From Candidatus Woesearchaeota archaeon (GTDB taxonomy: Archaea > Nanobdellota > Nanobdellia > Pacearchaeales > GW2011-AR1), in contig CAZCGJ010000002.1 of the NCBI GenBank assembly GCA_964498295.1, forward strand, positions 1 through 52,730: a stretch of DNA of 52,730 nucleotides, written 5' to 3'. The notes under the pieces are model-generated. The model did not search any database, was not told where the DNA came from, and saw only the letters and a list, made by a program, of their open reading frames with translations. Made by a program: the position numbers and the translations under genes. Every line of letters begins with the position of its first letter. Position 1 is the stretch's first letter. This document shows, piece by piece, positions 20,778-50,571 of this stretch.

Positions 20778-22310
20778 ATGACAACATTAACACCTAGAGA
20801 TTATCAAAGTTCAATTCTTGAAGTATGTAAAAAAGAATCTTGTCTAGTTATTCTCCCGACAGGTACTGGAAAAACATTAGTTGCATTAATGCTTGCTATG
20901 GAAGTATTTAGAAATAACCCTCTCCAGAAAGTAGTGTTTCTTGCACCAACGCGTCCTTTAATCGAACAACATGTAGAATACTTTACAAAAAATCTCCTGG
21001 AGGGATTTGCGCAAATAGATTTATTCACAGGAAAAACGCCTGCAGATCAAAGAAAAAAAATTTGGCAAAGAGCAGAATTTATTTTCTCAACACCACAATG
21101 TATTGCTAATGACTTAAAGAAAGGACTCTACGATTTATCAGAAGTTTGCCTGTTAATCCAAGACGAATGCCATAGATGTCTAAAAAATTACTCATATAAC
21201 TTAATATCTCAAAAATATAAAGAACAATCTATCAAACCACATGTCTTAGGACTAACAGCTTCTCCAGGAAGCGATAAAGCAACAATAAAGAAAGTATGCG
21301 ATAATTTAGGAATAAATTCTGTAGAGATCAGAACAAGAGACTCTCCGGATGTAAAACCCTACCTGCAAGAAAGAGAATTTGAGAAAATAGAAATAGAGTT
21401 TCCAATTGAATTTGAAGAAATACGTCAGTTAATGAGAGATGTGGTAAATGACAAAATAAATTCCCTTAGAGATATGAAAATCTTATTCGGCCCAGCAACA
21501 AAGGTAGCACTACTTGAATGTCAAAAAAAACTTTTCAAACATTTAGAATCAGGAGATAAAAATCCAAGCTACTTTGCAGGAATATCTGCCTGCTCACAAG
21601 CAATAAAAATTCAACACTCCTTAGAACTTCTAGAAACTCAAACAATAGGCTCTTTTATTAATTATATAAAAACAATTTTCAAAGAAGCTGAAGAAAAGAA
21701 ATCAAAAGGAGTTCAAATCTTAGCAAAGGATTTGAGAATAGGAAAAGCATTCACAATTGCAACAACCTTAGATTTGGAACATCCGAAACTAAACAAAATA
21801 AAAGAAATAGTAGAAGAAGCCATAAATTCAAACCCTAAAGCAAAAATAATTATTTTCGCACAATTTAGAGAAACAGTAAAGAAAATATCAGATATGCTTT
21901 CCACAAATCCATTACTAAAACCCGGAATATTTGTAGGTCAAGCAATGAAAGAACATGACCAAGGAAAATCTCATACAGGGTTAAAACAAAAAGAACAAAA
22001 AGAAATGATTGAAAAGTTTTCAAGAGGAGAAATAAATGTTTTATGTGCAACCTCTATTGCAGAAGAAGGATTAGACATTCCAGAAGTTAGCGAAGTTATT
22101 TTTTATGAGCCAGTTCCATCGGCAATTAGAACAATTCAAAGAGCAGGAAGAACTGCAAGACTTTTTCCAGGAAAATTAAAAATATTAATTACAAAAGACA
22201 CTAGAGATCAGATTTCACATTATGCTTCACAAGCAAAAGAAAGAAGAATGCATAAGGCAATCCAAGAAATAAAAAATGATTTCGATAATGGCCAGAAAAG
22301 CTTATTCTGA
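20778..22310 (+). CDS. hef: Hef/FANCM-type SF2 helicase (helicase part only)
   Basis: RDYQ...LPTGTGKT (motif I), DECHR (motif II), TASPG (motif III), and the C-terminal helicase lobe (ATSIAEEGLDIP, QRAGRTAR). Confidence 0.85.
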   Translation: MTTLTPRDYQSSILEVCKKESCLVILPTGTGKTLVALMLAMEVFRNNPLQKVVFLAPTRPLIEQHVEYFTKNLLEGFAQIDLFTGKTPADQRKKIWQRAEFIFSTPQCIANDLKKGLYDLSEVCLLIQDECHRCLKNYSYNLISQKYKEQSIKPHVLGLTASPGSDKATIKKVCDNLGINSVEIRTRDSPDVKPYLQEREFEKIEIEFPIEFEEIRQLMRDVVNDKINSLRDMKILFGPATKVALLECQKKLFKHLESGDKNPSYFAGISACSQAIKIQHSLELLETQTIGSFINYIKTIFKEAEEKKSKGVQILAKDLRIGKAFTIATTLDLEHPKLNKIKEIVEEAINSNPKAKIIIFAQFRETVKKISDMLSTNPLLKPGIFVGQAMKEHDQGKSHTGLKQKEQKEMIEKFSRGEINVLCATSIAEEGLDIPEVSEVIFYEPVPSAIRTIQRAGRTARLFPGKLKILITKDTRDQISHYASQAKERRMHKAIQEIKNDFDNGQKSLF

Positions 22311-36768: not shown

Positions 36769-37980
36769 TTACAATCCTAACGATTCAATTAATATACCTT
36801 CAACCTTTTCTAAAAGATTAGAAGGAATAGATAATTTAACTTCCCTTGTTCTTCCATGCCTCCCTTTTGAAATAACTTTAGCATTAATTAATCCTAACAT
36901 ATCAATTTCACCAATAATATCAGAAACTCTTCTTTGTGTTAATACTTCAATCCTAATTTTGTTACAAATTTCCTGATATAAATTATAAATATCTCCTGTA
37001 AAAAAATTAATATTTTCTGCATTTTCTTGTTTATTTAATTTTAAAATAGCATACAAAACTACTTGAAACTGAGTAGGTTCTGTTTCAACTATATCTAAAA
37101 TTTTATCTCTTTCAATTTTTGAATTTGCCTGATCTATATACTCTTCAGTAATTTTTAATTTTCCCTCTCTTTCTGCTAATTCCCCTGCAATACGTAATAA
37201 ATCTAAAGCTCTCCTAGCGTCGCCGTGCTCTCTAGCAGCAAAGGCAGCACATTTAGAAATAACAGCTTCATCAACAGTATTTTCTTTAAAGGCCCTAGAA
37301 CATCTTTCATTAAGAATATCTTTTAATTGCACAGCATTATATGGAGGAAATACAATTTCTTCTTCACCTAAAGAACTTCTTACCCTTGGATCAATATTTT
37401 CCAAAAAAGTCACATCGTTTGAAATACCTATTAAAGAAATTTGAGCCTGGCTTAACTCTGAATTTAGCCTAGTTAAATTATATAAAAAATTATCATCTAT
37501 TTTTTTTATTGCTTGATCTATTTCATCGAAGATAATAACTAGTGTTTGTTTCCTATTATCAACCATTTCAATAAATTTTTGATATACTGCAGGGGTCGGA
37601 AGACCGGTGTCCGCTACTTTACCACCTAATAAATCAATTAATGCCGCTAATATTCTATATTCAGTATCTGCAACCTTTTTAAGTTTACAATTAAGATACT
37701 CTATTCTAACATTTACGTCTGCTTCTTTTGATCTTTTTAGTAATTCATCTCTTACATATTGGACTGAAAGAGTCTTTCCAGTACCTGTTTTCCCATATAC
37801 AAAGAGATTACTAGCTCGTTCACCTCTTAAAATAGGAGCTAAAATAGAAGCAACATGTTCAATTTGCTTATCCCTATGAGGTATAGATTCTGGAGTATAA
37901 TTTGTCTGTAAAACACTTTTATCTTTGAATAAAGAATTCTTCATAGCAGAATCAAATATATGACCTATTTGTACACCCAT
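36769..37980 (-). CDS. cdc6: Orc1/Cdc6 replication initiator
   Basis: AAA+ Walker A GKTGTGKT, Walker B IIFDEID, and a C-terminal winged helix. Adjacent to the AT-rich intergenic region. Confidence 0.9.
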   Translation of the reverse strand: MGVQIGHIFDSAMKNSLFKDKSVLQTNYTPESIPHRDKQIEHVASILAPILRGERASNLFVYGKTGTGKTLSVQYVRDELLKRSKEADVNVRIEYLNCKLKKVADTEYRILAALIDLLGGKVADTGLPTPAVYQKFIEMVDNRKQTLVIIFDEIDQAIKKIDDNFLYNLTRLNSELSQAQISLIGISNDVTFLENIDPRVRSSLGEEEIVFPPYNAVQLKDILNERCSRAFKENTVDEAVISKCAAFAAREHGDARRALDLLRIAGELAEREGKLKITEEYIDQANSKIERDKILDIVETEPTQFQVVLYAILKLNKQENAENINFFTGDIYNLYQEICNKIRIEVLTQRRVSDIIGEIDMLGLINAKVISKGRHGRTREVKLSIPSNLLEKVEGILIESLGL

Positions 37981-38048
37981 TTTAATCTAATCTTAAAAAA
38001 GTTATTACTATATAAATATTCATATATAAGAAAATATAGTTCATCTAA

Positions 38049-38066
38049 CCTCTATTTCATATGGAA
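38049..38066 (-). repeat. ORB-like box (left, inverted)
   Basis: The reverse complement reads TTCCATATGAAATAGAGG, which fits the pattern TTCCA-N3-GAAAT-N3/4-GG shared with the right box. Confidence 0.5.
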
Positions 38067-38303
38067 AATATTTCTTATATAAACTATTATTTTAAAGGAA
38101 ACTTATAATATTTATTTTTAATCCTTAAAATTCAAAATAACACCCCCACTCCTTCACTTCCTATAGAGATTTATATTCGATAAAGAAAATAAAAATAATA
38201 TATATACTATATTATATATATTATATTATATATAATATATAATATAAATACTTATAAATAAAAATAATAAAAAAAGAGTATCTTTTTTTCATAAAAATCG
38301 TTT

Positions 38304-38323
38304 TTCCAACCGAAATCATAGGG
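38304..38323 (+). repeat. ORB-like box (right)
   Basis: TTCCAACCGAAATCATAGGG resembles archaeal origin recognition boxes (a TTCCA..GAAA dyad followed by a G-string). Confidence 0.5.
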
Positions 38324-38414
38324 ACAGAGAGTCTAATTATTTATAGTATCAGTAATTAAAAATATATAAACTACTATACAAAGATTTATAAATAAATTTT
38401 ATATATTTTCTTCT

Positions 38415-38669
38415 ATGGATAAAAGAACTTATAGAAGTTTATTGGGAAAACAAGTGGTAACTAAAGAAGGAAAGAAGTTAGGTGTTGCAAAAGACTTAAC
38501 ATTTGAAACAAAGACAGGTGAATTAATTCATTTGGTTTTGAAAGACCTTACTCAGTATACAGCTAATCTTTCTTTGGAGAGAACAAAGGATAGAGAAGCT
38601 TTAATACCATTTAATTCTGTTATAGCTGTAGGAGACTTTATAGTAGTTTCAGAAGAAGATTTAGCTTAA
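38415..38669 (+). CDS. PRC-barrel domain protein
   Basis: 84 aa. LLGKQVVTKEGKKLGVAKDLTFETKTGELIHLVL...VGDFIVV is a typical small PRC barrel. Confidence 0.6.
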   Translation: MDKRTYRSLLGKQVVTKEGKKLGVAKDLTFETKTGELIHLVLKDLTQYTANLSLERTKDREALIPFNSVIAVGDFIVVSEEDLA

Positions 38670-38684
38670 ACTTTTAATAAAAAA

Positions 38685-42664: not shown

Positions 42665-42976
42665 ATGCCTTCAATTTCTAAAGAAAAAAAAGAAAAAATA
42701 CAAGAACAAGTGATTTATTTTCTATTTACTATATTTCCAAAACAAGTTTTTACATCAGATATTGCAAAAGAGCTTGCTCGAGATGAGGAATTTGTAAAAA
42801 AACTGCTTTTAGAGCTCGAATCAAAAAACATTTTAGTAAAAATTGATAAAAACTCTCAAGGAATAAAGTATGAGAGACGTGCAAGATGGAGAATTTCTAA
42901 TGAGACTTACGAAATATATAGTAAGCATCAACAAAATCAGCAAAGTATCTCTCAAAAAGTAGAACAAAATATATAA
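42665..42976 (+). CDS. small winged-helix DNA-binding protein, hypothetical
   Basis: 103 aa. FTSDIAKELARDEEFVKKLLLELESKNILVKI...RWRIS fits a wHTH recognition helix plus wing. Confidence 0.5.
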   Translation: MPSISKEKKEKIQEQVIYFLFTIFPKQVFTSDIAKELARDEEFVKKLLLELESKNILVKIDKNSQGIKYERRARWRISNETYEIYSKHQQNQQSISQKVEQNI

Positions 42977-43048
42977 TATCGGTCCTTCTTTTGAAAATAT
43001 ATCTTATAGAATAATTAATATTAAAAAGACCTCCTTGTTTTATATAAT

Positions 43049-43717
43049 ATGGATCCTGTAAAAGAGGCATTTCAAAGGATAAAAGAGGAAATTCAGTCAC
43101 TTAGGTTAGAAATCTCTTCTCTTAATAATGAAATTGCCATTCTTAAAGCATCTTCTCAATACCAGCAGAAACCAACACAAAACAACCCCTTTACTTCCAC
43201 TCCAGCAGACAAACCGGCAGATTTCCCAACAGTTCCACAGGAAACAACGGGGTTAAAAGAACATATTAACTTATTTTCCACAGGAAACAAGGGGGTTCCA
43301 ACAGACACTTCAACACACAGGCAAACAAACCAACAAACCGACTTTTTAGGCGGAATAATGCATGAAAATAGCGAAAAACTCAATTTAGAGAACGTTCAGG
43401 AAACCCTAAATTCCCTCGATAATCTCAAAAAAGAGCTTCGACTGAAGTTCAAAAGACTTACTACTCAAGAAATGCTTGTTTTTTCTACAATTTATAGTTT
43501 AGAAACAAAAGGTATAGAAGAAATTACTTATAAAACACTCGCAAATAACCTCAATTTAAGCGAATCATCAATTAGAGATTATGTTATCAAACTTACTTCA
43601 AAAGGCGTCCCTATCGTCAAAAGAAGGGTAAATAACAAGCAAATTGCACTCCAGATCTCTCCAAATCTTCAAAAAATTGCATCCCTATCTACAATCATAA
43701 AGCTTCGCGAACTCTAA
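43049..43717 (+). CDS. coiled-coil plus C-terminal HTH protein, hypothetical regulator
   Basis: 222 aa. N-terminal heptads, a T/Q/P-rich linker (GNKGVPTDTSTHRQTNQQTD), and C-terminal LTTQEMLVFSTIY...LNLSESSIRDYVIKLTSKGVPI. Confidence 0.5.
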   Translation: MDPVKEAFQRIKEEIQSLRLEISSLNNEIAILKASSQYQQKPTQNNPFTSTPADKPADFPTVPQETTGLKEHINLFSTGNKGVPTDTSTHRQTNQQTDFLGGIMHENSEKLNLENVQETLNSLDNLKKELRLKFKRLTTQEMLVFSTIYSLETKGIEEITYKTLANNLNLSESSIRDYVIKLTSKGVPIVKRRVNNKQIALQISPNLQKIASLSTIIKLREL

Positions 43718-43993
43718 GAGCTAATTAGCATTCGGCTAACCGATTAATTCTTTTTAGTTATAATTACATGGACCCTAAATCTCTCTTATTTAGGCTTGTC
43801 CTCGATATTTTTTAGCTTTTCCTTGTTTTTTGACTCCCTACTTTCAAAAAACTCTCTTTTCTGCCAAAAATACTTTTTTTTCTGTCTTTCTTTTCTATTT
43901 TTTCAATACTCTCTTTTTTAGTATTTTTATTTTAATCTTATTATATGTCTATTTCTCTCACTTTTTCTTCTAATTTTCATTCAACTATCTAAT

Positions 43994-44590
43994 TTAAACC
44001 GTTTTTTTGTTTGATTTAACTCTCACTTTTTCCTTTTTGAGTATAATTTGCCTCATTTCTTCAGGAATATACACTCTTTTCTTCCCATTTGCCTCTTTTG
44101 ACTCTTCAATTAACCCTTCACATTTCTGTTTTATCATATTTATCTGACCTCTGATTGTACTTTTATCTTTTCCAAGAACTATTGCTAGATCTTCATAACT
44201 CAACTTGCTATTATCTGCATTTACTAATGCCCATACTATTCCTCTTTCCATAAGTGTTAAATTGTCTAAAATGCTTGTTTGAACAGCCGTTTGAACAGTA
44301 CTTTGAACATCTAAAACACTTGTTTGTTTTATCCCTACAGGCTGTTGTTGTTTGGAAATCTTAGTTCCAAACAGAGAAATAAAATCCTTTACATCATCAA
44401 TTTCATTTTGCAATACAAATATTTGTTGCTTTAGTTCAGCAATTTCTTCATTCTGTTGTTTATTATTGCCGTCGAAATGGCTTATCCATTGACCTACTTT
44501 GTTAAAATCTTCTTTAACTGCATCAAAAGATTTCTGAACTTCTTCTTTTTTTATTGTACTCTCTTCTCTTTTTTTAAAAAATCCGAACAT
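43994..44590 (-). CDS. coiled-coil plus C-terminal HTH protein, hypothetical regulator
   Basis: 198 aa with the same architecture as 43049..43717: N-terminal coiled coil, a Q/T-rich linker, and C-terminal LTLMERGIVWAL...LSYEDLAIVLGKDKSTIRGQINMIK. Confidence 0.5.
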   Translation of the reverse strand: MFGFFKKREESTIKKEEVQKSFDAVKEDFNKVGQWISHFDGNNKQQNEEIAELKQQIFVLQNEIDDVKDFISLFGTKISKQQQPVGIKQTSVLDVQSTVQTAVQTSILDNLTLMERGIVWALVNADNSKLSYEDLAIVLGKDKSTIRGQINMIKQKCEGLIEESKEANGKKRVYIPEEMRQIILKKEKVRVKSNKKTV

Positions 44591-45722: not shown

Positions 45723-45884
45723 ATGGCAGCAACACCACCAGATGCACAAAAAAGGAAAATTGACTGGAACATAGACAGAAGAGTTTACGATGATTTTATG
45801 AAAGCATGTAGTAATAAAGGATATGCCCCTCAAGTCGTTGTAGAAAAAATGATGGCTAAGTTCAATCAAACAAAACAGATTTAA
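45723..45884 (+). CDS. ribbon-helix-helix (CopG/Arc-like) small DNA-binding protein, 53 aa, below the ORF-track cutoff
   Basis: Hand translation gives MAAATPPDAQKRKIDWNIDRRVYDDFMKACSNKGYAPQVVVEKMMAKFNQTKQI-type sequence (read from ATG 45723 to TAA 45884). It shows a beta-strand, helix, helix pattern and is preceded by GGGAGGT. The 60-aa track ORF on the opposite strand (45687..45869) is probably spurious. Confidence 0.5.
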   Translation: MAATPPDAQKRKIDWNIDRRVYDDFMKACSNKGYAPQVVVEKMMAKFNQTKQI

Positions 45885-46001
45885 TTCTGCTTTGAATCTT
45901 ATTATTTTATTTTTAATTTATATTATACTTATTTTTTCTTTACACTTTACTGATCCTTAAACGAAGATATTGGGGTTTTTGGAGATCTTTGAATAAAGTT
46001 G

Positions 46002-46056
46002 ACCTTAGTGCACAAAACCGCCGAAACCAAAAAGCAGGTTAAGCGGTCGAACCTAA
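46002..46056 (+). repeat. 55-nt direct repeat, copy 1
   Basis: ACCTTAGTGCACAAAACCGCCGAAACCAAAAAGCAGGTTAAGCGGTCGAACCTAA. Identical to copy 2 except at one position. Confidence 0.85.
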
Positions 46057-46107
46057 GTAACTCCCCTAAATATAAATCTTTAAAAAGAATTAATATATCC
46101 ACTAATA

Positions 46108-46494
46108 ATGACTTTAAGAGATTGTCTCGATAGTGAAGTAAGAAGAGGTCCATATCTCAATATTAAAACAGGCGAGCCTGTGAGAGTTTATAACTTAGAA
46201 GGTAACTTACATTATGCCGATCCATATCAAACTTTTGGCGAAAATGAAAGACCCCTATCTTTAACGGAGGAAGTTGCAAAAAATTTATTGAGGCTAGCTA
46301 ATTCTTCAAAAATTCAAAAACTTCTTTTTGACACAAAATACTCTGATGACTCTCGAGCTCCTAAATTAGATACTCTTCCTAAAAAAGATTTGGTCTTTAG
46401 AGCAGCACAAAGCCAACATAAGTGCACAGCCGCCATTATACCGGTTGATGCTCCGGAAATAATTAGGAGAGGGTTTAGAGTTCCTCATGTCTAA
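46108..46494 (+). CDS. hypothetical protein
   Basis: 128-aa ATG ORF. No family recognised. Contains a 30-nt partial copy of the flanking repeat at 46405-46434. Confidence 0.45.
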   Translation: MTLRDCLDSEVRRGPYLNIKTGEPVRVYNLEGNLHYADPYQTFGENERPLSLTEEVAKNLLRLANSSKIQKLLFDTKYSDDSRAPKLDTLPKKDLVFRAAQSQHKCTAAIIPVDAPEIIRRGFRVPHV

Positions 46495-46753
46495 TAAAAA
46501 TCCTCTATATTTTTGTAAATGGAAAGGTTGCAAAGTTTCTGGAGTTGTGGCAAGAAATTGTGATTATTGTAATTTGGATAATTATGTTTGTAGACATACT
46601 GGTGAATTATGTGTTGCAAGTAAAGGTTTAGAGGCGTTCGCACAATCTCTTACTAAAAGTTTGGAAGATGGCGAGCCAGGATATCTCGGATTATTTCCTA
46701 GTGCAACAATAGACCCTAATTCTCACTTGCTTTCAACACCATACACTTTATAG
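46487..46753 (+). CDS. hypothetical Cys-rich protein
   Basis: 88 aa. Overlaps the previous ORF by 8 nt. Six Cys in the first 42 residues (CKWKGC...CDYC...C...C). Confidence 0.45.
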   Translation: MSNKNPLYFCKWKGCKVSGVVARNCDYCNLDNYVCRHTGELCVASKGLEAFAQSLTKSLEDGEPGYLGLFPSATIDPNSHLLSTPYTL

Positions 46754-46796
46754 ACAAAAATATATCTTAAATTAAATAGGCTTTCGCACAAAGCCA

Positions 46797-46851
46797 ACCT
46801 AAGTGCACAAAACCGCCGAAACCAAAAAGCAGGTTAAGCGGTCGAACCTAA
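46797..46851 (+). repeat. 55-nt direct repeat, copy 2
   Basis: ACCTAAGTGCACAAAACCGCCGAAACCAAAAAGCAGGTTAAGCGGTCGAACCTAA. Matches copy 1 at 54 of 55 positions. Confidence 0.85.
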
Positions 46852-47176
46852 AAACTGTTGAGAGATATGATTTTTATTTCCAAAACATCAAAAAACAGTA
46901 AAAAATCACCAAAAATAGCCTAAAATTCCCTTTATGGTTCGTACAAGATACATTGTTACAACCCTATTTTTACTCAAAAAATACAGAAAAAACTTGTTTT
47001 TTGGTCAAATTTGAAAAATCACATATTAATCCTCAGCCAAAAAATAAAAATGCCTAAAATCGCCAGGACTCTTTAATTTATAATTTGTGCACATTGATTA
47101 CCTAAGTGAACAACTCTCTAAATAAATTTATTTAATCTTTGAACTAAACAAACCAAAGTGCACAGAGAATTATTCT

Positions 47177-47500
47177 TTACAAAAATTGTTCCGATCGTCC
47201 ACCGGTTCCATAAAGATCTACTGGCATTCCTGCCATCAAATCCCAAGCATCAAAATCATCATTCAAACGTTTAGTTTCCAACATTCCAGGCGTAACTCTT
47301 TGGGTTCCAACAGGTACTTGTGCAAATCCTTGAACACATTCAGCAGCAGGTTCTCTTCCTAACTCGCCCTTACAAATAAATTGTGTTCTGGGCCAATTAA
47401 GTCCACATGAATAAGAAGTAATATCTGCTTCTATTCCTAAATGTCCTCCAGATGTATCATCTTCTCTAATTAAATAAGGACAGGTTGATTGACATCTCAT
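47177..47500 (-). CDS. hypothetical protein
   Basis: 107-aa ATG ORF and the only minus-strand gene in this block. No family recognised. Confidence 0.4.
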   Translation of the reverse strand: MRCQSTCPYLIREDDTSGGHLGIEADITSYSCGLNWPRTQFICKGELGREPAAECVQGFAQVPVGTQRVTPGMLETKRLNDDFDAWDLMAGMPVDLYGTGGRSEQFL

Positions 47501-47541
47501 AAATTTCTAAACCTTTTTTAATATTTAAGCATTTATGTCCT

Positions 47542-47575
47542 CCAAAATCTATTTAAACCCCGGTTCGCACAATCT
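47542..47575 (+). promoter_or_regulatory. duplicated 34-nt leader/promoter element, copy 1
   Basis: CCAAAATCTATTTAAACCCCGGTTCGCACAATCT ends 3 nt before the ATG at 47579. Contains the TATA-like TATTTAAA. Confidence 0.45.
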
Positions 47576-47578
47576 CTT

Positions 47579-48001
47579 ATGAAAAAAGAAAAGATAATTG
47601 CAGCTTCTGGATATTTCGATCCTATTCATGTTGGGCATATTGAGTGTTTAGAGCTTGCAAAAAAGTTAGGAGATAGACTCGTGGTTATTGTTAATAATGA
47701 TAATCAGGCCGTACTAAAAAAAGGTAAGCCGTTTATGAAACAAGAAGAGAGATTAAAAATTGTTCAGTCCTTAAGGTGTGTGGATGAAGTTTTTCTAAGT
47801 ATTGATCAAGACAGAACTGTGTGCAAATCCTTGGCGGCAGTTAGGCCTGATGTTTTTGCAAAAGGCGGAGATAGAACTAGTGGTGAAATTCCTGAATCTG
47901 TAATCTGTAAAGAATTAAATATACAAATTATTGATGGGCTGGGTGCCAAGATACAATCAAGCTCAAGCTTAATCGAAAATTCTAAATCTGAATTAAATTA
48001 G
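47579..48001 (+). CDS. cytidylyl/adenylyltransferase-family nucleotidyltransferase (RfaE domain II/TagD-like)
   Basis: 140 aa. ASGYFDPIHVGHIECL carries the HxGH motif. VIVNNDNQAVLKKGKPFM...ERLKIV..LRCVDEV...KGGD resembles heptose-1-P adenylyltransferase-type enzymes. Confidence 0.7.
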   Translation: MKKEKIIAASGYFDPIHVGHIECLELAKKLGDRLVVIVNNDNQAVLKKGKPFMKQEERLKIVQSLRCVDEVFLSIDQDRTVCKSLAAVRPDVFAKGGDRTSGEIPESVICKELNIQIIDGLGAKIQSSSSLIENSKSELN

Positions 48002-48007
48002 ATTCTC

Positions 48008-48041
48008 CCAAAATCTATTTAAACCCTGGTTCGCACAATCT
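48008..48041 (+). promoter_or_regulatory. duplicated 34-nt leader/promoter element, copy 2
   Basis: CCAAAATCTATTTAAACCCTGGTTCGCACAATCT matches copy 1 at 33 of 34 positions and ends 3 nt before the ATG at 48045. Confidence 0.45.
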
Positions 48042-48044
48042 AGT

Positions 48045-48548
48045 ATGAAAAAAAGAGTTGTTGTAAATGATTTGATGCAAAAAAATTATATTTATTTTCT
48101 AACTGAACCGATCGGTAAAAATTTTGATCCGGAGTTTAAACCAGAGTTAACACCTAAACAGATGTTGGAGTTGGGTGTTTTTAGTGGAAAGTACATGACT
48201 GACTGCAAAAAAGAGTTTCCATCGTCATGGTTCGCACAATCCAAATTGTCTCCACTATATCCTCAAGATTCTCTAAACTTCTTTAAAGTACATGCTTCAC
48301 AACCTCTTTCAGTATGGCGAGAAAAGGGTTGGATTTATCGCGAGGATCCTCGCGGTTGGTTTCAATGGTATTGTCGGTATTTCATGGGTCGTAGATGTTC
48401 TGATGATCAAAGACAAATCAAACGTTGGAAAGCAATCAAACGACACATCTCTCAACTAAAAAAACACTGCAAAAAAAGAGATTTTTCTTGTCGACCTGTT
48501 CAACGACAAGCTATTCTTCATTGGGCATACGATTCAAGGAAGCTATGA
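48045..48548 (+). CDS. hypothetical protein with a conserved-looking Trp/Arg-rich core
   Basis: 167 aa. The motif REDPRGWFQWYCRYFMGRRCSDDQRQIKRWKAI looks like a conserved domain, but I cannot name it. Confidence 0.5.
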   Translation: MKKRVVVNDLMQKNYIYFLTEPIGKNFDPEFKPELTPKQMLELGVFSGKYMTDCKKEFPSSWFAQSKLSPLYPQDSLNFFKVHASQPLSVWREKGWIYREDPRGWFQWYCRYFMGRRCSDDQRQIKRWKAIKRHISQLKKHCKKRDFSCRPVQRQAILHWAYDSRKL

Positions 48549-49741
48549 AATTCGAAACAAAAACAAAATCTTTAATGTACGGAATGGAGTTTACCCATGG
48601 TGTCCGTCGTGCAATTTTATCTGCATTGGGATTGCTTTATTTTCTATCTTTCGGTTTTAGTCTTATTTCAGTAACCACTCTTTTTTCAATCTCGACTATC
48701 ATTATGCTTCTTTTTGAATTTCCGACTGCAGCCATTGCCGATTTTGATTCTAGAAGAAAGTCACTTCTAATTTCTTTTTTTCTAATGTTTGTTGCATTTT
48801 TAGGTCTTTTTTATTTTAGGACTTTCTGGCCGCTTGCATTTTTCTGGATACTCGGAGATATTGCATGGACCTTCTGTTCTGGCGCAAATTATGCATGGGT
48901 AATTGATACGCTCGGTTATTCTGGAAAGAAATCGAAGATAGTTTCTATTATCTCACACTCATATTCATTCGAAAAAGCAGGAAGGGCAATAGGTGGTTTA
49001 ATAGGGCTCGCACTCGTGTTAATTAATTTCCGTTTTATTTGGTTATTAATTTCTCTATCTTATTTATTCTTTTTATTTGTTTTTTGGAGATATGCAGAGG
49101 AAAGAAATTTTAAGAAAATAGAAACGCCTTATCATTTTCTAAAGAAACCCCTTATCCAGGCGAGAGAAGTAATTAGTTATCTTTTCAAAAAAGAAAATAA
49201 ACAAATAAGAAACTTAAATTTTATTGACATGCTGAATATTGCTTCGCTTAGTGCTTTTTTTATATGTCTTCCATTAGTCTTTTCGCAGTTTTTTAGAATT
49301 TCAACAAGCAGCATTTCCGGGATTTATTCTTGTCTTGCACTAGTAGTTATCTTAGGCCCTATCTTAGCAAGAAAACTAAGCAAACTTAAAATTAAACTAC
49401 TTTTGGTTTCATTCACCTTATTAATTGGCATTTGTATGCTATTTTTTATTTATTCCTCTATATTGCTAGTTGCCTTATTATTTTTAGTTTTAATTGAAAT
49501 TTTTATGACTTCTTATAATGCTACTCTCGACTCTGCTTGTCACCATTTGTTTCCTTCAAAAATTAGGGCATCTCTTGGTTCTATGACAAACATTTTATGG
49601 GCTATTTCAAATGCAACCGCTATATTTTTAGCAGGAATTAGCATTTCATTTATAGGTCTAAAAGAAACCATGTTTATTTGCGGGTTACTATTATTTTTGT
49701 CTGCTATTTTATTTTTCTTTAAATTAGAGGATAAAAAATGA
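48545..49741 (+). CDS. MFS-type transporter
   Basis: From the ATG at 48545, which overlaps the previous stop as ATGA. About 12 hydrophobic segments and a DFDSRRK loop after TM2 (the MFS DRxGRR-like motif). The track start at 48425 is TTG. Confidence 0.6.
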   Translation: MKFETKTKSLMYGMEFTHGVRRAILSALGLLYFLSFGFSLISVTTLFSISTIIMLLFEFPTAAIADFDSRRKSLLISFFLMFVAFLGLFYFRTFWPLAFFWILGDIAWTFCSGANYAWVIDTLGYSGKKSKIVSIISHSYSFEKAGRAIGGLIGLALVLINFRFIWLLISLSYLFFLFVFWRYAEERNFKKIETPYHFLKKPLIQAREVISYLFKKENKQIRNLNFIDMLNIASLSAFFICLPLVFSQFFRISTSSISGIYSCLALVVILGPILARKLSKLKIKLLLVSFTLLIGICMLFFIYSSILLVALLFLVLIEIFMTSYNATLDSACHHLFPSKIRASLGSMTNILWAISNATAIFLAGISISFIGLKETMFICGLLLFLSAILFFFKLEDKK

Positions 49742-50571
49742 ACGCTGAAGAATTTCTAAAAAAACTTGAAATAGAACTAAAAATTTCTAAAAACTCTAGT
49801 TATACACTCAGAAATTATCTAGATGCTAATAAACAACTGCTTGAACAGTCGCATAAACAACCGGAAGAATTAGCAGTAGACGATGTCAAGATGTTTATGG
49901 CTGAGAAATTAACGGAAAAATCTTCTTCTTCTATTATCTTATTCTTAGCTGCAGTAAAATATGCTTACTTAAACATCTTAAAAAAAGATATTACTCTAGG
50001 AATTAAACGACCAAAAAAAGAAAAAAGAATCCCTGTGGTTATGTCTAAAGAGGAAGTTAAACGTTTGATAAACAGCATTTACAGTGATAAAAGTCGTTTA
50101 ATGGTTTCTATGCTGTATGCTTGCGGTTTCCGTATTTCAGAATTAATTAATTTAAAAATTGAAGATTTAGATTTTATAGAAAAAACAGGCATGGTTAAAC
50201 AGGCAAAAGGAAAGAAGGATAGGGTGTTTAATATTCCAGAATTTTTAGTTGTTGATTTAAACAAGCAAATCGAGTTTCAAAAAAAATTAAATCATGAATT
50301 ACTATTCTCAAACGAGGAAACTGGAAATAAACTCTCTGCTTCAAACATCGAAAAAATTGTAAGAAAGGCCGTCAAACGAGCAGGAATACAAAAAGATGTT
50401 CATTGCCATACTCTCCGGCATTCATTTGCCACACATTTATTAGAGAATGGGGTTGACATTAGAAAAATCCAAGAACTTTTAGGTCATGCGGATTTATCGA
50501 CAACACAGATATATACACATGTTTCAAAAGAAGAGTTAAAGAAAATAAAAAGCCCTATAGATTCATTATAA
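49738..50571 (+). CDS. xerA: tyrosine recombinase, XerA/XerC/XerD type
   Basis: 277 aa. ACGFRISEL (the Arg box), HTLRHSFATHLLENGVDIRKIQELLGHADLSTTQIYTHV (the H-x-x-R...H...Y catalytic set). Its ATG overlaps the MFS stop (ATGA). Confidence 0.85.
   Translation: MNAEEFLKKLEIELKISKNSSYTLRNYLDANKQLLEQSHKQPEELAVDDVKMFMAEKLTEKSSSSIILFLAAVKYAYLNILKKDITLGIKRPKKEKRIPVVMSKEEVKRLINSIYSDKSRLMVSMLYACGFRISELINLKIEDLDFIEKTGMVKQAKGKKDRVFNIPEFLVVDLNKQIEFQKKLNHELLFSNEETGNKLSASNIEKIVRKAVKRAGIQKDVHCHTLRHSFATHLLENGVDIRKIQELLGHADLSTTQIYTHVSKEELKKIKSPIDSL

Follow-up and report, generated by a model that had tools for sequence, protein, structure and literature searches.

A putative XerA recognition module, with a dif-like site and a promoter-embedded arm, in a woesearchaeal chromosome

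The 52,730-nt stretch of a Candidatus Woesearchaeota genome analysed here (contig CAZCGJ010000002.1; hereafter the window) carries several copies of an 11-nt motif, TTCGCACAATC, upstream of and within an operon that encodes the tyrosine recombinase XerA. We propose that the motif is probably the binding arm of XerA within a xerA/dif-like module, and that the copy in the promoter of the operon acts as an operator for autorepression. Judged from sequence, the locus is likely a functional-looking xerA/dif-like module of DPANN archaea with a promoter-embedded arm, and not the phase-locked cassette system that the first-pass annotation had suggested.

Exact copies of TTCGCACAATC begin at 46637, 47564, 48030 and 48231, all on the plus strand of the window. 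None appeared in 100 dinucleotide-preserving shuffles (0 expected, against 4 in the real sequence), and the earlier impression that the four same-strand copies are not random was therefore correct. The core TTCGYACAA occurs seven times against an expectation of 0.63, exclusively on the plus strand (46637, 47564, 48030, 48231, 46783, 46938 and 21855), and six of the seven copies fall within 1.6 kb (46637-48239). GTTCGCACAATC is the most over-represented G+C-containing 12-mer of the window. The core at 21855 lies in the codons of the helicase peptide IIFAQFRET, plainly a coincidence of coding. That the four exact copies share a codon phase, a central point of the first-pass annotation, is literally true; two of them, however, lie in duplicated leaders and count as one event, so that the agreement involves just three independent events, an outcome with a chance of 1/9 that is not statistically meaningful and deserves little weight.

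Three genes on one strand, joined by 4-nt overlaps, form the xerA operon (Table 1). The internal genes are preceded by Shine-Dalgarno-like sequences, and the first gene by a TATA box 22 nt before its ATG. The best full-length PDB matches of the window XerA are the XerA proteins of T. acidophilum (5hxy) and P. abyssi (4a8e). The two leaders that hold the motif, 47542-47587 and 48008-48053, are identical at 43 of 46 positions, which bears out the 33/34 match reported earlier over a 34-nt stretch, and in both of them the motif starts 15 nt ahead of the ATG. Each leader reads, in order, a BRE-like CCAAAATC (BRE, B recognition element), the TATA box TATTTAAA, CCNN, the G+C-rich GGTTCGCACAATC, 4 nt and the start codon. 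The TATA boxes (48016-48023 and 47550-47557) end 22 nt ahead of the ATG with CCAAAATC just upstream. In archaeal core promoters a purine-rich BRE precedes a TATA box whose centre is about 26 nt ahead of the start; the supposed leader has both and is a BRE/TATA core promoter for predicted leaderless transcripts, in agreement with the earlier suggestion of a TATA box in a portable promoter/operator unit. Most window genes share this leaderless geometry: their TATA box, of the TTTATAAA or TTTAAA type, ends about 22 nt ahead of the start codon. Their promoters are A+T-rich and unrelated between TATA and start, which rules out the arm as a genome-wide promoter consensus.

Selection on the promoter block is evident from nine close relatives (annotated Candidatus Woesearchaeota; 167-aa protein 86-95% identical), all of which share the block CCAAAATCTATTTAAACCnnGGTTCGTACAATCtagtATG, while the DNA farther upstream is unrelated among them. 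Mean pairwise identity is 0.95 over the promoter block (-31 to -7), 0.93 at codon positions 1 and 2, 0.69 at third positions and 0.35 in the upstream flank. The difference between the block and the third positions indicates purifying selection on the block as strong as that on the protein.

The association with xerA extends well beyond these relatives. We compared 13 related DPANN lineages with XerA proteins 68-100% identical, the distant loci (cited below by L number) having been retrieved through XerA homologs. A TATA box directly followed by the arm heads the xerA operon in all 13, whatever the first gene. In L202 and L204 (XerA 77-79%) the first gene encodes the 167-aa protein and the promoter around the arm reads TATTTAAACCAAGGTTCGTACAATCTnGTATG. 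In L206 (74%; promoter around the arm CCTATTTAAACCATAGTTCGTACAATCCATTATG) that gene has shrunk to a 23-codon remnant, a fusion of its N-terminus to its C-terminus (MKKKVMIKYLMQISQLGHDPRRI, at L206:5930-6000), and promoter and arm are kept before xerA. An unrelated 247-aa gene comes first in L208 (72%; promoter around the arm TTTATAAGCCCGAGTTCGTACAATCTTGAGAGGTGAAAAATG). In L210, L211 and L212 (68-70%), which are genomes of Woesearchaeota, Pacearchaeota and Nanoarchaeia type, xerA itself is the first gene, and the TATA box is followed within 1-2 nt by AGTTCG(T/C)ACAAT. Since the arm persists where the 167-aa gene is reduced, replaced or absent, the motif follows xerA and not the 167-aa gene; L206, L208 and L210-L212 exclude the possibility that it belongs to the latter. 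Among more than 80 loci with a 167-aa homolog, the promoter motif was found only where a same-strand xerA follows (10) or where the contig ends first (2), and archaeal and bacterial homologs of similar divergence occur in other contexts without it. A metagenome scan for TATA plus arm returned 10 matches, of which 8 precede a 167-aa gene and 2 look like chance. The link between motif and adjacent recombinase drawn in the first-pass annotation is thus supported by co-occurrence across lineages.

The 167-aa family is itself widespread and conserved, with more than 8000 homologs at approximately 70-85% identity in archaea, candidate-phyla bacteria, Planctomycetota, Desulfobacterota and others. The protein has no Pfam family and matches no PDB entry by sequence or by fold (AlphaFold model; predicted local distance difference test score 73). 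We rejected it as the factor that binds the motif, given the lack of any family, PDB or fold match and the persistence of the motif without the gene.

The copy at 46936, which had been listed as a mere shorter variant, proved to be the most important one. It is an arm of a two-armed site, here called site A, that has 11-bp imperfectly inverted arms (complementary at 8 of 11 positions) around a 6-bp spacer and lies about 1.1 kb upstream of the xerA operon. Every close relative that has site A keeps its left arm, spacer and TTGT without change. A 14-nt left flank is also kept in close relatives, and a weaker form of it, CCAAAAT..CCC..T.A, appears in L202, L206 and L208. The surrounding DNA varies by genome: L002 and L004 diverge directly after ...ATTGT, and L005 differs on the left. 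A dyad of the same 11-6-11 design, with arms (A/G)(G/C)TTCGYACAA, stands upstream of the xerA operon in the 13 lineages, 56 nt to 2.8 kb from the promoter arm (examples in Table 1). L088 has no exact arm, and its possible homolog of the site is AGTTTCAACAA-CCTATC-TTGTTGTGACC. Compared with E. coli dif, the dyad sites agree at 16-20 of 28 positions (background P, 2e-3 to <5e-6); with T. kodakarensis dif they agree at 13-17 of 28. The L211 dyad shares the whole central TGTATA of E. coli dif and 9 of the 11 bases of its XerC arm (P <5e-6). For comparison, known archaeal dif sites agree with the dif consensus of bacteria at 14-18 of 28 positions (PMC2958812). Structured RNA was rejected as an explanation: Rfam finds only tRNAs, and RNAalifold, applied to the conserved 190 nt after site A, returned only the small palindrome of the site itself and no compensatory pairs.

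The design of these sites is that of dif, in which two 11-bp arms flank a 6-bp spacer; XerA binds to each of the arms, cuts at their borders with the spacer and takes half-sites as substrates too (PMC3646895, PMC8371274). Certain archaea have xerA and dif together in a single module (PMC5357621), and the haloarchaeal xerA operon has a dif-like site upstream (PMC11840125). On the simplest reading, the consensus (A/G)GTTCG(C/T)ACAA would be one 11-bp arm recognised by the XerA encoded 1.7 kb downstream. At 46936-46963 a pair of XerA molecules would be bound, with strand exchange where the spacer meets the arms, and recombination there would serve chromosome dimer resolution and possibly the integration of foreign DNA. 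The promoter arm occupies approximately -20 to -8 of the leaderless start, so that bound XerA would block TFB and RNA polymerase and produce negative autoregulation. We infer this repressor role from the position of the arm and from general knowledge of archaeal repressors. The intragenic copies would be extra single arms.

One of the two promoters is a recent local duplicate. The 140-aa cytidylyltransferase-like gene is part of a 466-bp unit bracketed by the two promoter copies, which are 46-nt repeats containing the arm. L087, collinear with the window over 45990-47587, does not have the gene, and neither does any other relative compared. The promoter next to the operon (P2) retains the ancestral sequence and the ancestral right flank, and the left flank of the upstream copy (P1) is the ancestral left flank seen in L087, L089 and L005. 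On this comparison the gene and one promoter copy are a 466-bp insertion specific to the strain. The promoter-plus-arm unit was duplicated along with the inserted gene, and this duplication would place the cytidylyltransferase under the same control as the operon. The first-pass proposal that the motif copies are relics of duplication therefore holds for P1. A contig from another sample (L001, Logan SRR12261226) is identical to window positions 46927-48064 and stops 30 nt past 48034, the C/T-variable position of the arm; a k=31 assembly graph would give such an end if the sample also contained a strain carrying the T variant.

Two further copies lie inside genes. The one at 46635, in an 88-aa Cys-rich gene, matches P1 at 21 of 23 positions (46636-46658 against 47563-47585), a match that contains the 17 identical nucleotides noted earlier and extends through the 6 nt after the arm (TCTCTT in both). 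The FAQSL peptide and the DNA TT(C/T)GCACAATC are retained in all five members of this small gene family, the conserved part of which always terminates in GLExFAQSL; the protein bears a faint likeness to AN1-type zinc fingers (PDB 1wfe, E 0.05). Within the close clade, and only there, the copy at 48229 in the 167-aa gene is retained at one and the same codon: the equivalent site reads TGGTTTAAAAAC in L202, TGGTTTGTAAAA in L204 and TGGTTTGCAAAA in L088. These intragenic copies may be extra XerA arms, or they may be accidents held in place by coding constraint. The variant at 46781-46791 is probably a separate element that overlaps the core by chance.

Several observations weigh against XerA as the reader of the motif. 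The right arm of the dyad is poor (5-8 of 11) in the window's own clade, and TAA-N6-8-TTA, reported as the most conserved feature of archaeal dif sites (PMC11840125), is replaced by CAA-N6-TTG here and in most lineages. Taken alone, the window offers no statistical support: it holds 30 comparable inverted repeats and 395 sites that match E. coli dif at 15 or more of 28 positions, so that neither the dyad symmetry nor the dif match is significant and the case rests on the comparative data. Both intragenic copies are left unexplained. Site A lies about 9 kb from orc1/cdc6 and the probable replication origin, whereas the dif sites of Thermococcales are in termination regions (PMC2958812), although a terminus location of dif is not universal in archaea. 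In addition, a literature search turned up no report of a Xer protein regulating its own gene through a half-site in the promoter.

A second reading, which we consider unlikely, is that a dedicated transcription factor reads the motif instead of XerA, in which case the dyad and the promoter arm would be operators of a small regulon that includes xerA. Candidate factors are a 53-aa ribbon-helix-helix protein (45723-45884), winged-helix proteins (42665-44590) and the PF07508-domain protein encoded downstream of xerA in relatives, and ribbon-helix-helix and winged-helix genes are syntenic with xerA in all lineages. The space between TATA and start is the classic site for an archaeal repressor, and dyad operators are frequent. 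Against such a factor stand the exact 11-6-11 geometry of a recombinase site, the similarity to E. coli dif at up to 20 of 28 positions including the whole centre, and the tracking of xerA irrespective of the surrounding genes; a single promoter arm is unexpected for a dimeric regulator.

It is also doubtful, to a similar degree, that the TATA-plus-arm element and the dif-like site form a gene-capture platform driven by XerA, an archaeal counterpart of integrative mobile elements exploiting Xer recombination (IMEX) or of integrons. On this reading XerA would insert small circular single-gene units, such as the 466-bp unit, at the arm immediately behind a resident promoter, which would then drive their expression. 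This would explain why co-oriented genes between the promoter arm and xerA vary in almost every lineage (nothing, the remnant, or a 167-aa, 154-aa, major facilitator superfamily (MFS), 103-aa, 238-aa or 247-aa gene) and why DNA turns over on both sides of site A; the position of the MFS gene, for example, is taken in relatives by a 154-aa gene, by 103-aa or 238-aa genes, or by nothing. Three A+T-rich virus-like contigs with similar dyads (L113, L214 and L216, from IMG/VR) would then be mobile partners. No integrase was seen in the parts of these contigs examined, and scans of viral contigs gave 106 and 8 matches, near chance numbers; we regard a few true dyads and the three contigs as leads only. 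No repeats lie between the operon genes, the single arms are partnerless, homology between genomes starts upstream of the BRE and junctions joining different copies were not observed, and capture is for these reasons a minority possibility.

The related proposal that the copies are active crossover points, at which XerA deletes, inserts or swaps cassettes between direct copies and even fuses reading frames, is more improbable still. Every copy has the same orientation, the cytidylyltransferase forms a single-gene unit between arm-containing repeats, gene content among site A, promoter and xerA varies in nearly every genome, the 88-aa gene copy and P1 share a 6-nt "spacer", and XerA cleaves half-sites in vitro (PMC3646895). 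However, the promoter and intragenic copies lack a second arm (4-6 of 11), and single arms without a dyad partner should be poor recombination substrates. The genes from the promoter to xerA abut by ATGA overlaps with no motif or repeat between them. P2 is ancestral throughout and P1 differs on both sides of the arm, a pattern that does not fit a crossover in the spacer and by which we rejected this route for the cytidylyltransferase insertion. There is no indication of the in-frame crossover and swapping of N-termini imagined earlier; the promoter copies are non-coding, and the shared codon phase is within chance. Homology among genomes breaks upstream of the BRE and not at the arm, and no variant junctions were seen.

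It is very improbable that the motif has no function at the DNA level, the promoter being conserved only as a promoter and the rest being duplication relics or FAQS coding coincidences, for although the 21855 copy is such a coincidence, the copy in the 167-aa gene is two substitutions from the ancestral TGGTTTGCAAAAGC (the form in L088) and P1 is a simple duplicate of P2, a G+C-rich 11-mer that is invariant between TATA and start down to 68% XerA identity, stands before four different first genes and recurs nearby as a dyad goes beyond promoter function or chance.

The window is a 31% G+C segment of an archaeal chromosome that encodes RadA, both PolD subunits, an Lhr-type helicase and tRNAs. 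The 77% A+T intergenic region at 37981-38684, with long TA runs, adjoins orc1/cdc6 and PolD genes and is a probable replication origin; its place at 38 kb led us to reject the motif copies as origin iterons. The order PolD-small, Cdc6, PRC-barrel, three winged-helix genes, xerA and rpS9/rpL13 is conserved in L206 and L210-L212. The genes from site A to the promoter and from the promoter arm to xerA differ in almost every genome. Across its 52.7 kb the window holds one dyad site and no minus-strand arm.

Other repeats occupy the same variable region. A 69-nt direct repeat, 90% identical between 45988-46056 and 46783-46851, brackets genes for 128-aa and 88-aa proteins; relatives carry two or three copies, the higher number in L003, whose two-gene unit has been duplicated in tandem. 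The repeat contains a small hairpin, ACCGC..AACC-loop-GGTT..GCGGT, whose inner stem is AACC/GGTT or AACT/AGTT depending on the copy. There is also a second strand-specific motif, CCT(A/T)AGTGCACA, present five times (46003, 46417, 46797, 47101 and 47153), and all plus-strand GTGCACA copies of the window lie within that 1.2-kb stretch. Its longer form, ACAAAGCCAACCTAAGTGCACA, recurs inside otherwise dissimilar genes of L003, L005, L082, L087 and L088. The 53-aa ribbon-helix-helix-like protein, nearly identical in L005, L082 and L202, is encoded where the variable region begins on the left, and it may be a DNA-binding protein that reads one of the local motifs. Relatives have a conserved neighbour on the downstream side of xerA (L202:7322-7855, L204:9249-9794, L211:7831-8256 and others), a small protein of 140-180 aa with a zinc-ribbon start and a match to the PF07508 "Recombinase" domain; in the window its gene would fall just past the end.

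Table 1. Locations and sequences of the features discussed; empty cells, no entry.
Feature	Location	Strand	Sequence or remarks
orc1/cdc6	36769-37980	minus	
Arm copy in 88-aa Cys-rich gene (46487-46753)	46635-46647	+	CGTTCGCACAATC; codes F-A-Q-S
Weak variant	46781-46791	+	CTTTCGCACAA; fused to CCTAAGTGCACA element and 69-nt repeat
Conserved left flank of site A	46922-46935	+	AAAATTCCCTTTAT
Site A (dif-like, intergenic)	46936-46963		GGTTCGTACAA-GATACA-TTGTTACAACC
Promoter copy P1	47542-47578	+	BRE 47542-47549; TATA 47550-47557; arm GGTTCGCACAATC 47562-47574
Cytidylyltransferase-like gene (140 aa)	47579-48001	+	Pfam CTP_transf_like, E 9e-18; rfaE domain II-like
Native promoter P2 of xerA operon	48008-48044	+	BRE 48008-48015; TATA 48016-48023; arm GGTTCGCACAATC 48028-48040
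167-aa protein gene, operon gene 1	48045-48548	+	>8000 homologs; overlaps next gene
Arm copy in 167-aa gene	48229-48241	+	GGTTCGCACAATC; codons W-F-A-Q-S
MFS transporter gene, operon gene 2	48545-49741	+	Pfam MFS_1; overlaps each neighbour by 4 nt
xerA (277 aa), operon gene 3	49738-50571	+	NCBIfam recomb_XerA_Arch, 231.5 bits (cutoff 220)
L204 dyad			GGTTCGCACAA-GATACA-TTGTGCGAACT; arms 10/11
L211 dyad			GCTTCGTACAA-TATACA-TTATACGAACC; arms 9/11
L212 dyad			ACTTCGTACAA-CCTATA-TTGTGCGAACT; arms 9/11
L210 dyad			ACTTCGTACAA-CCTATA-TTGTGCGAACC; arms 8/11; 56 nt from promoter arm
L206 dyad			AGTTCGCACAA-GATATA-TTGTGGTTACT; arms 8/11
L113 dyad (virus-like)	L113:11560-11660		GGTTCGCACAA-TGCAGA-TTGTTACAACT; right arm and flank in common with window
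L214 dyad (virus-like)	L214:6550-6610		AGTTCGCACAA-CAAAGA-TTGTACGAAGT; directly after TATA box
L216 dyad (virus-like)	L216:11590-11650		ACTTCGCACAA-TATAGA-TTGTGCGAACA

Xer/dif systems have been studied in detail in bacteria and, among archaea, in a few cultivated ones. A literature search found nothing published that joins XerA to DPANN archaea, for which the arm offers a concrete and testable recognition sequence. The conserved module lies near a probable replication origin and not near a terminus. If confirmed, a feedback loop with a recombinase arm as promoter operator would add a new role in regulation for a Xer site. Gene turnover is also concentrated at this locus, so that whether mobile elements exploit Xer in archaea can be tested directly.

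The closest known systems are the XerA/dif pairs of P. abyssi, T. kodakarensis and T. acidophilum, which likewise have a single XerA and a 28-bp non-coding 11-6-11 site with comparable similarity to bacterial dif (PMC2958812). They differ in that the inner arm bases are TAA/TTA there and CAA/TTG here, that the site here adjoins xerA, 5-12 kb from orc1/cdc6, instead of lying in a termination region, and that an extra single arm stands in the xerA promoter here. The linkage of recombinase gene and site is shared with the haloarchaeal xerA/dif and the streptococcal xerS/difSL modules (PMC5357621, PMC11840125); in our set, in contrast, the distance ranges from 56 nt to 2.8 kb, with variable genes in between, and a promoter-embedded arm is not described for modules in those two papers.

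Like IMEX and degenerate dif sites (CTX and TLC phages, difGGI of the gonococcal genetic island), the locus has direct repeats of sites with a good and a degenerate arm on either side of variable DNA near dif (PMC5357621), and virus-like contigs carry similar sites. IMEX are recognised as discrete elements, lacking a recombinase of their own, between dif and a dif-like site; what we found here is the cytidylyltransferase unit flanked by arm-containing 46-nt repeats, and variable DNA abutting site A. Unlike IMEX, no element with defined ends, second good site or excision/integration junction was found here. IMEX are unreported in archaea, and the term is absent from a 2021 review (PMC8371274).

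The integron resembles the locus in its Xer-clade tyrosine recombinase, in a promoter beside the recombination site and in single-gene insertion expressed from that promoter. We rejected an integron because the window XerA has no IntI-specific insertion (its TIGR02249 score is below the cutoff, with the match in two stretches, and its match to the structure of the integron integrase IntI4 is split) and because there are no attC-like hairpin sites between the operon genes, which have 4-nt overlaps and no repeat or motif between them. Here, moreover, xerA is co-directional and last in its operon.

In B. subtilis, XerD-binding half-sites act in SMC unloading without recombination, and the similarity is that single Xer arms cluster around dif and serve a purpose other than recombination. 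Xer half-sites that act without recombination are mentioned in PMC11840125. The organism and the proposed role are different in our case. The Tn3/gamma-delta resolvase represses its own gene through res, and TnpI of Tn4430 has accessory direct-repeat motifs; both resemble the present arrangement in placing recombinase motifs in or beside the recombinase promoter, with autoregulation, and extra single motifs beside a core dyad. Those are transposon enzymes with a fixed architecture, whereas the enzyme here is chromosomal and of Xer type, and the spacing between its dyad and the promoter arm is variable.

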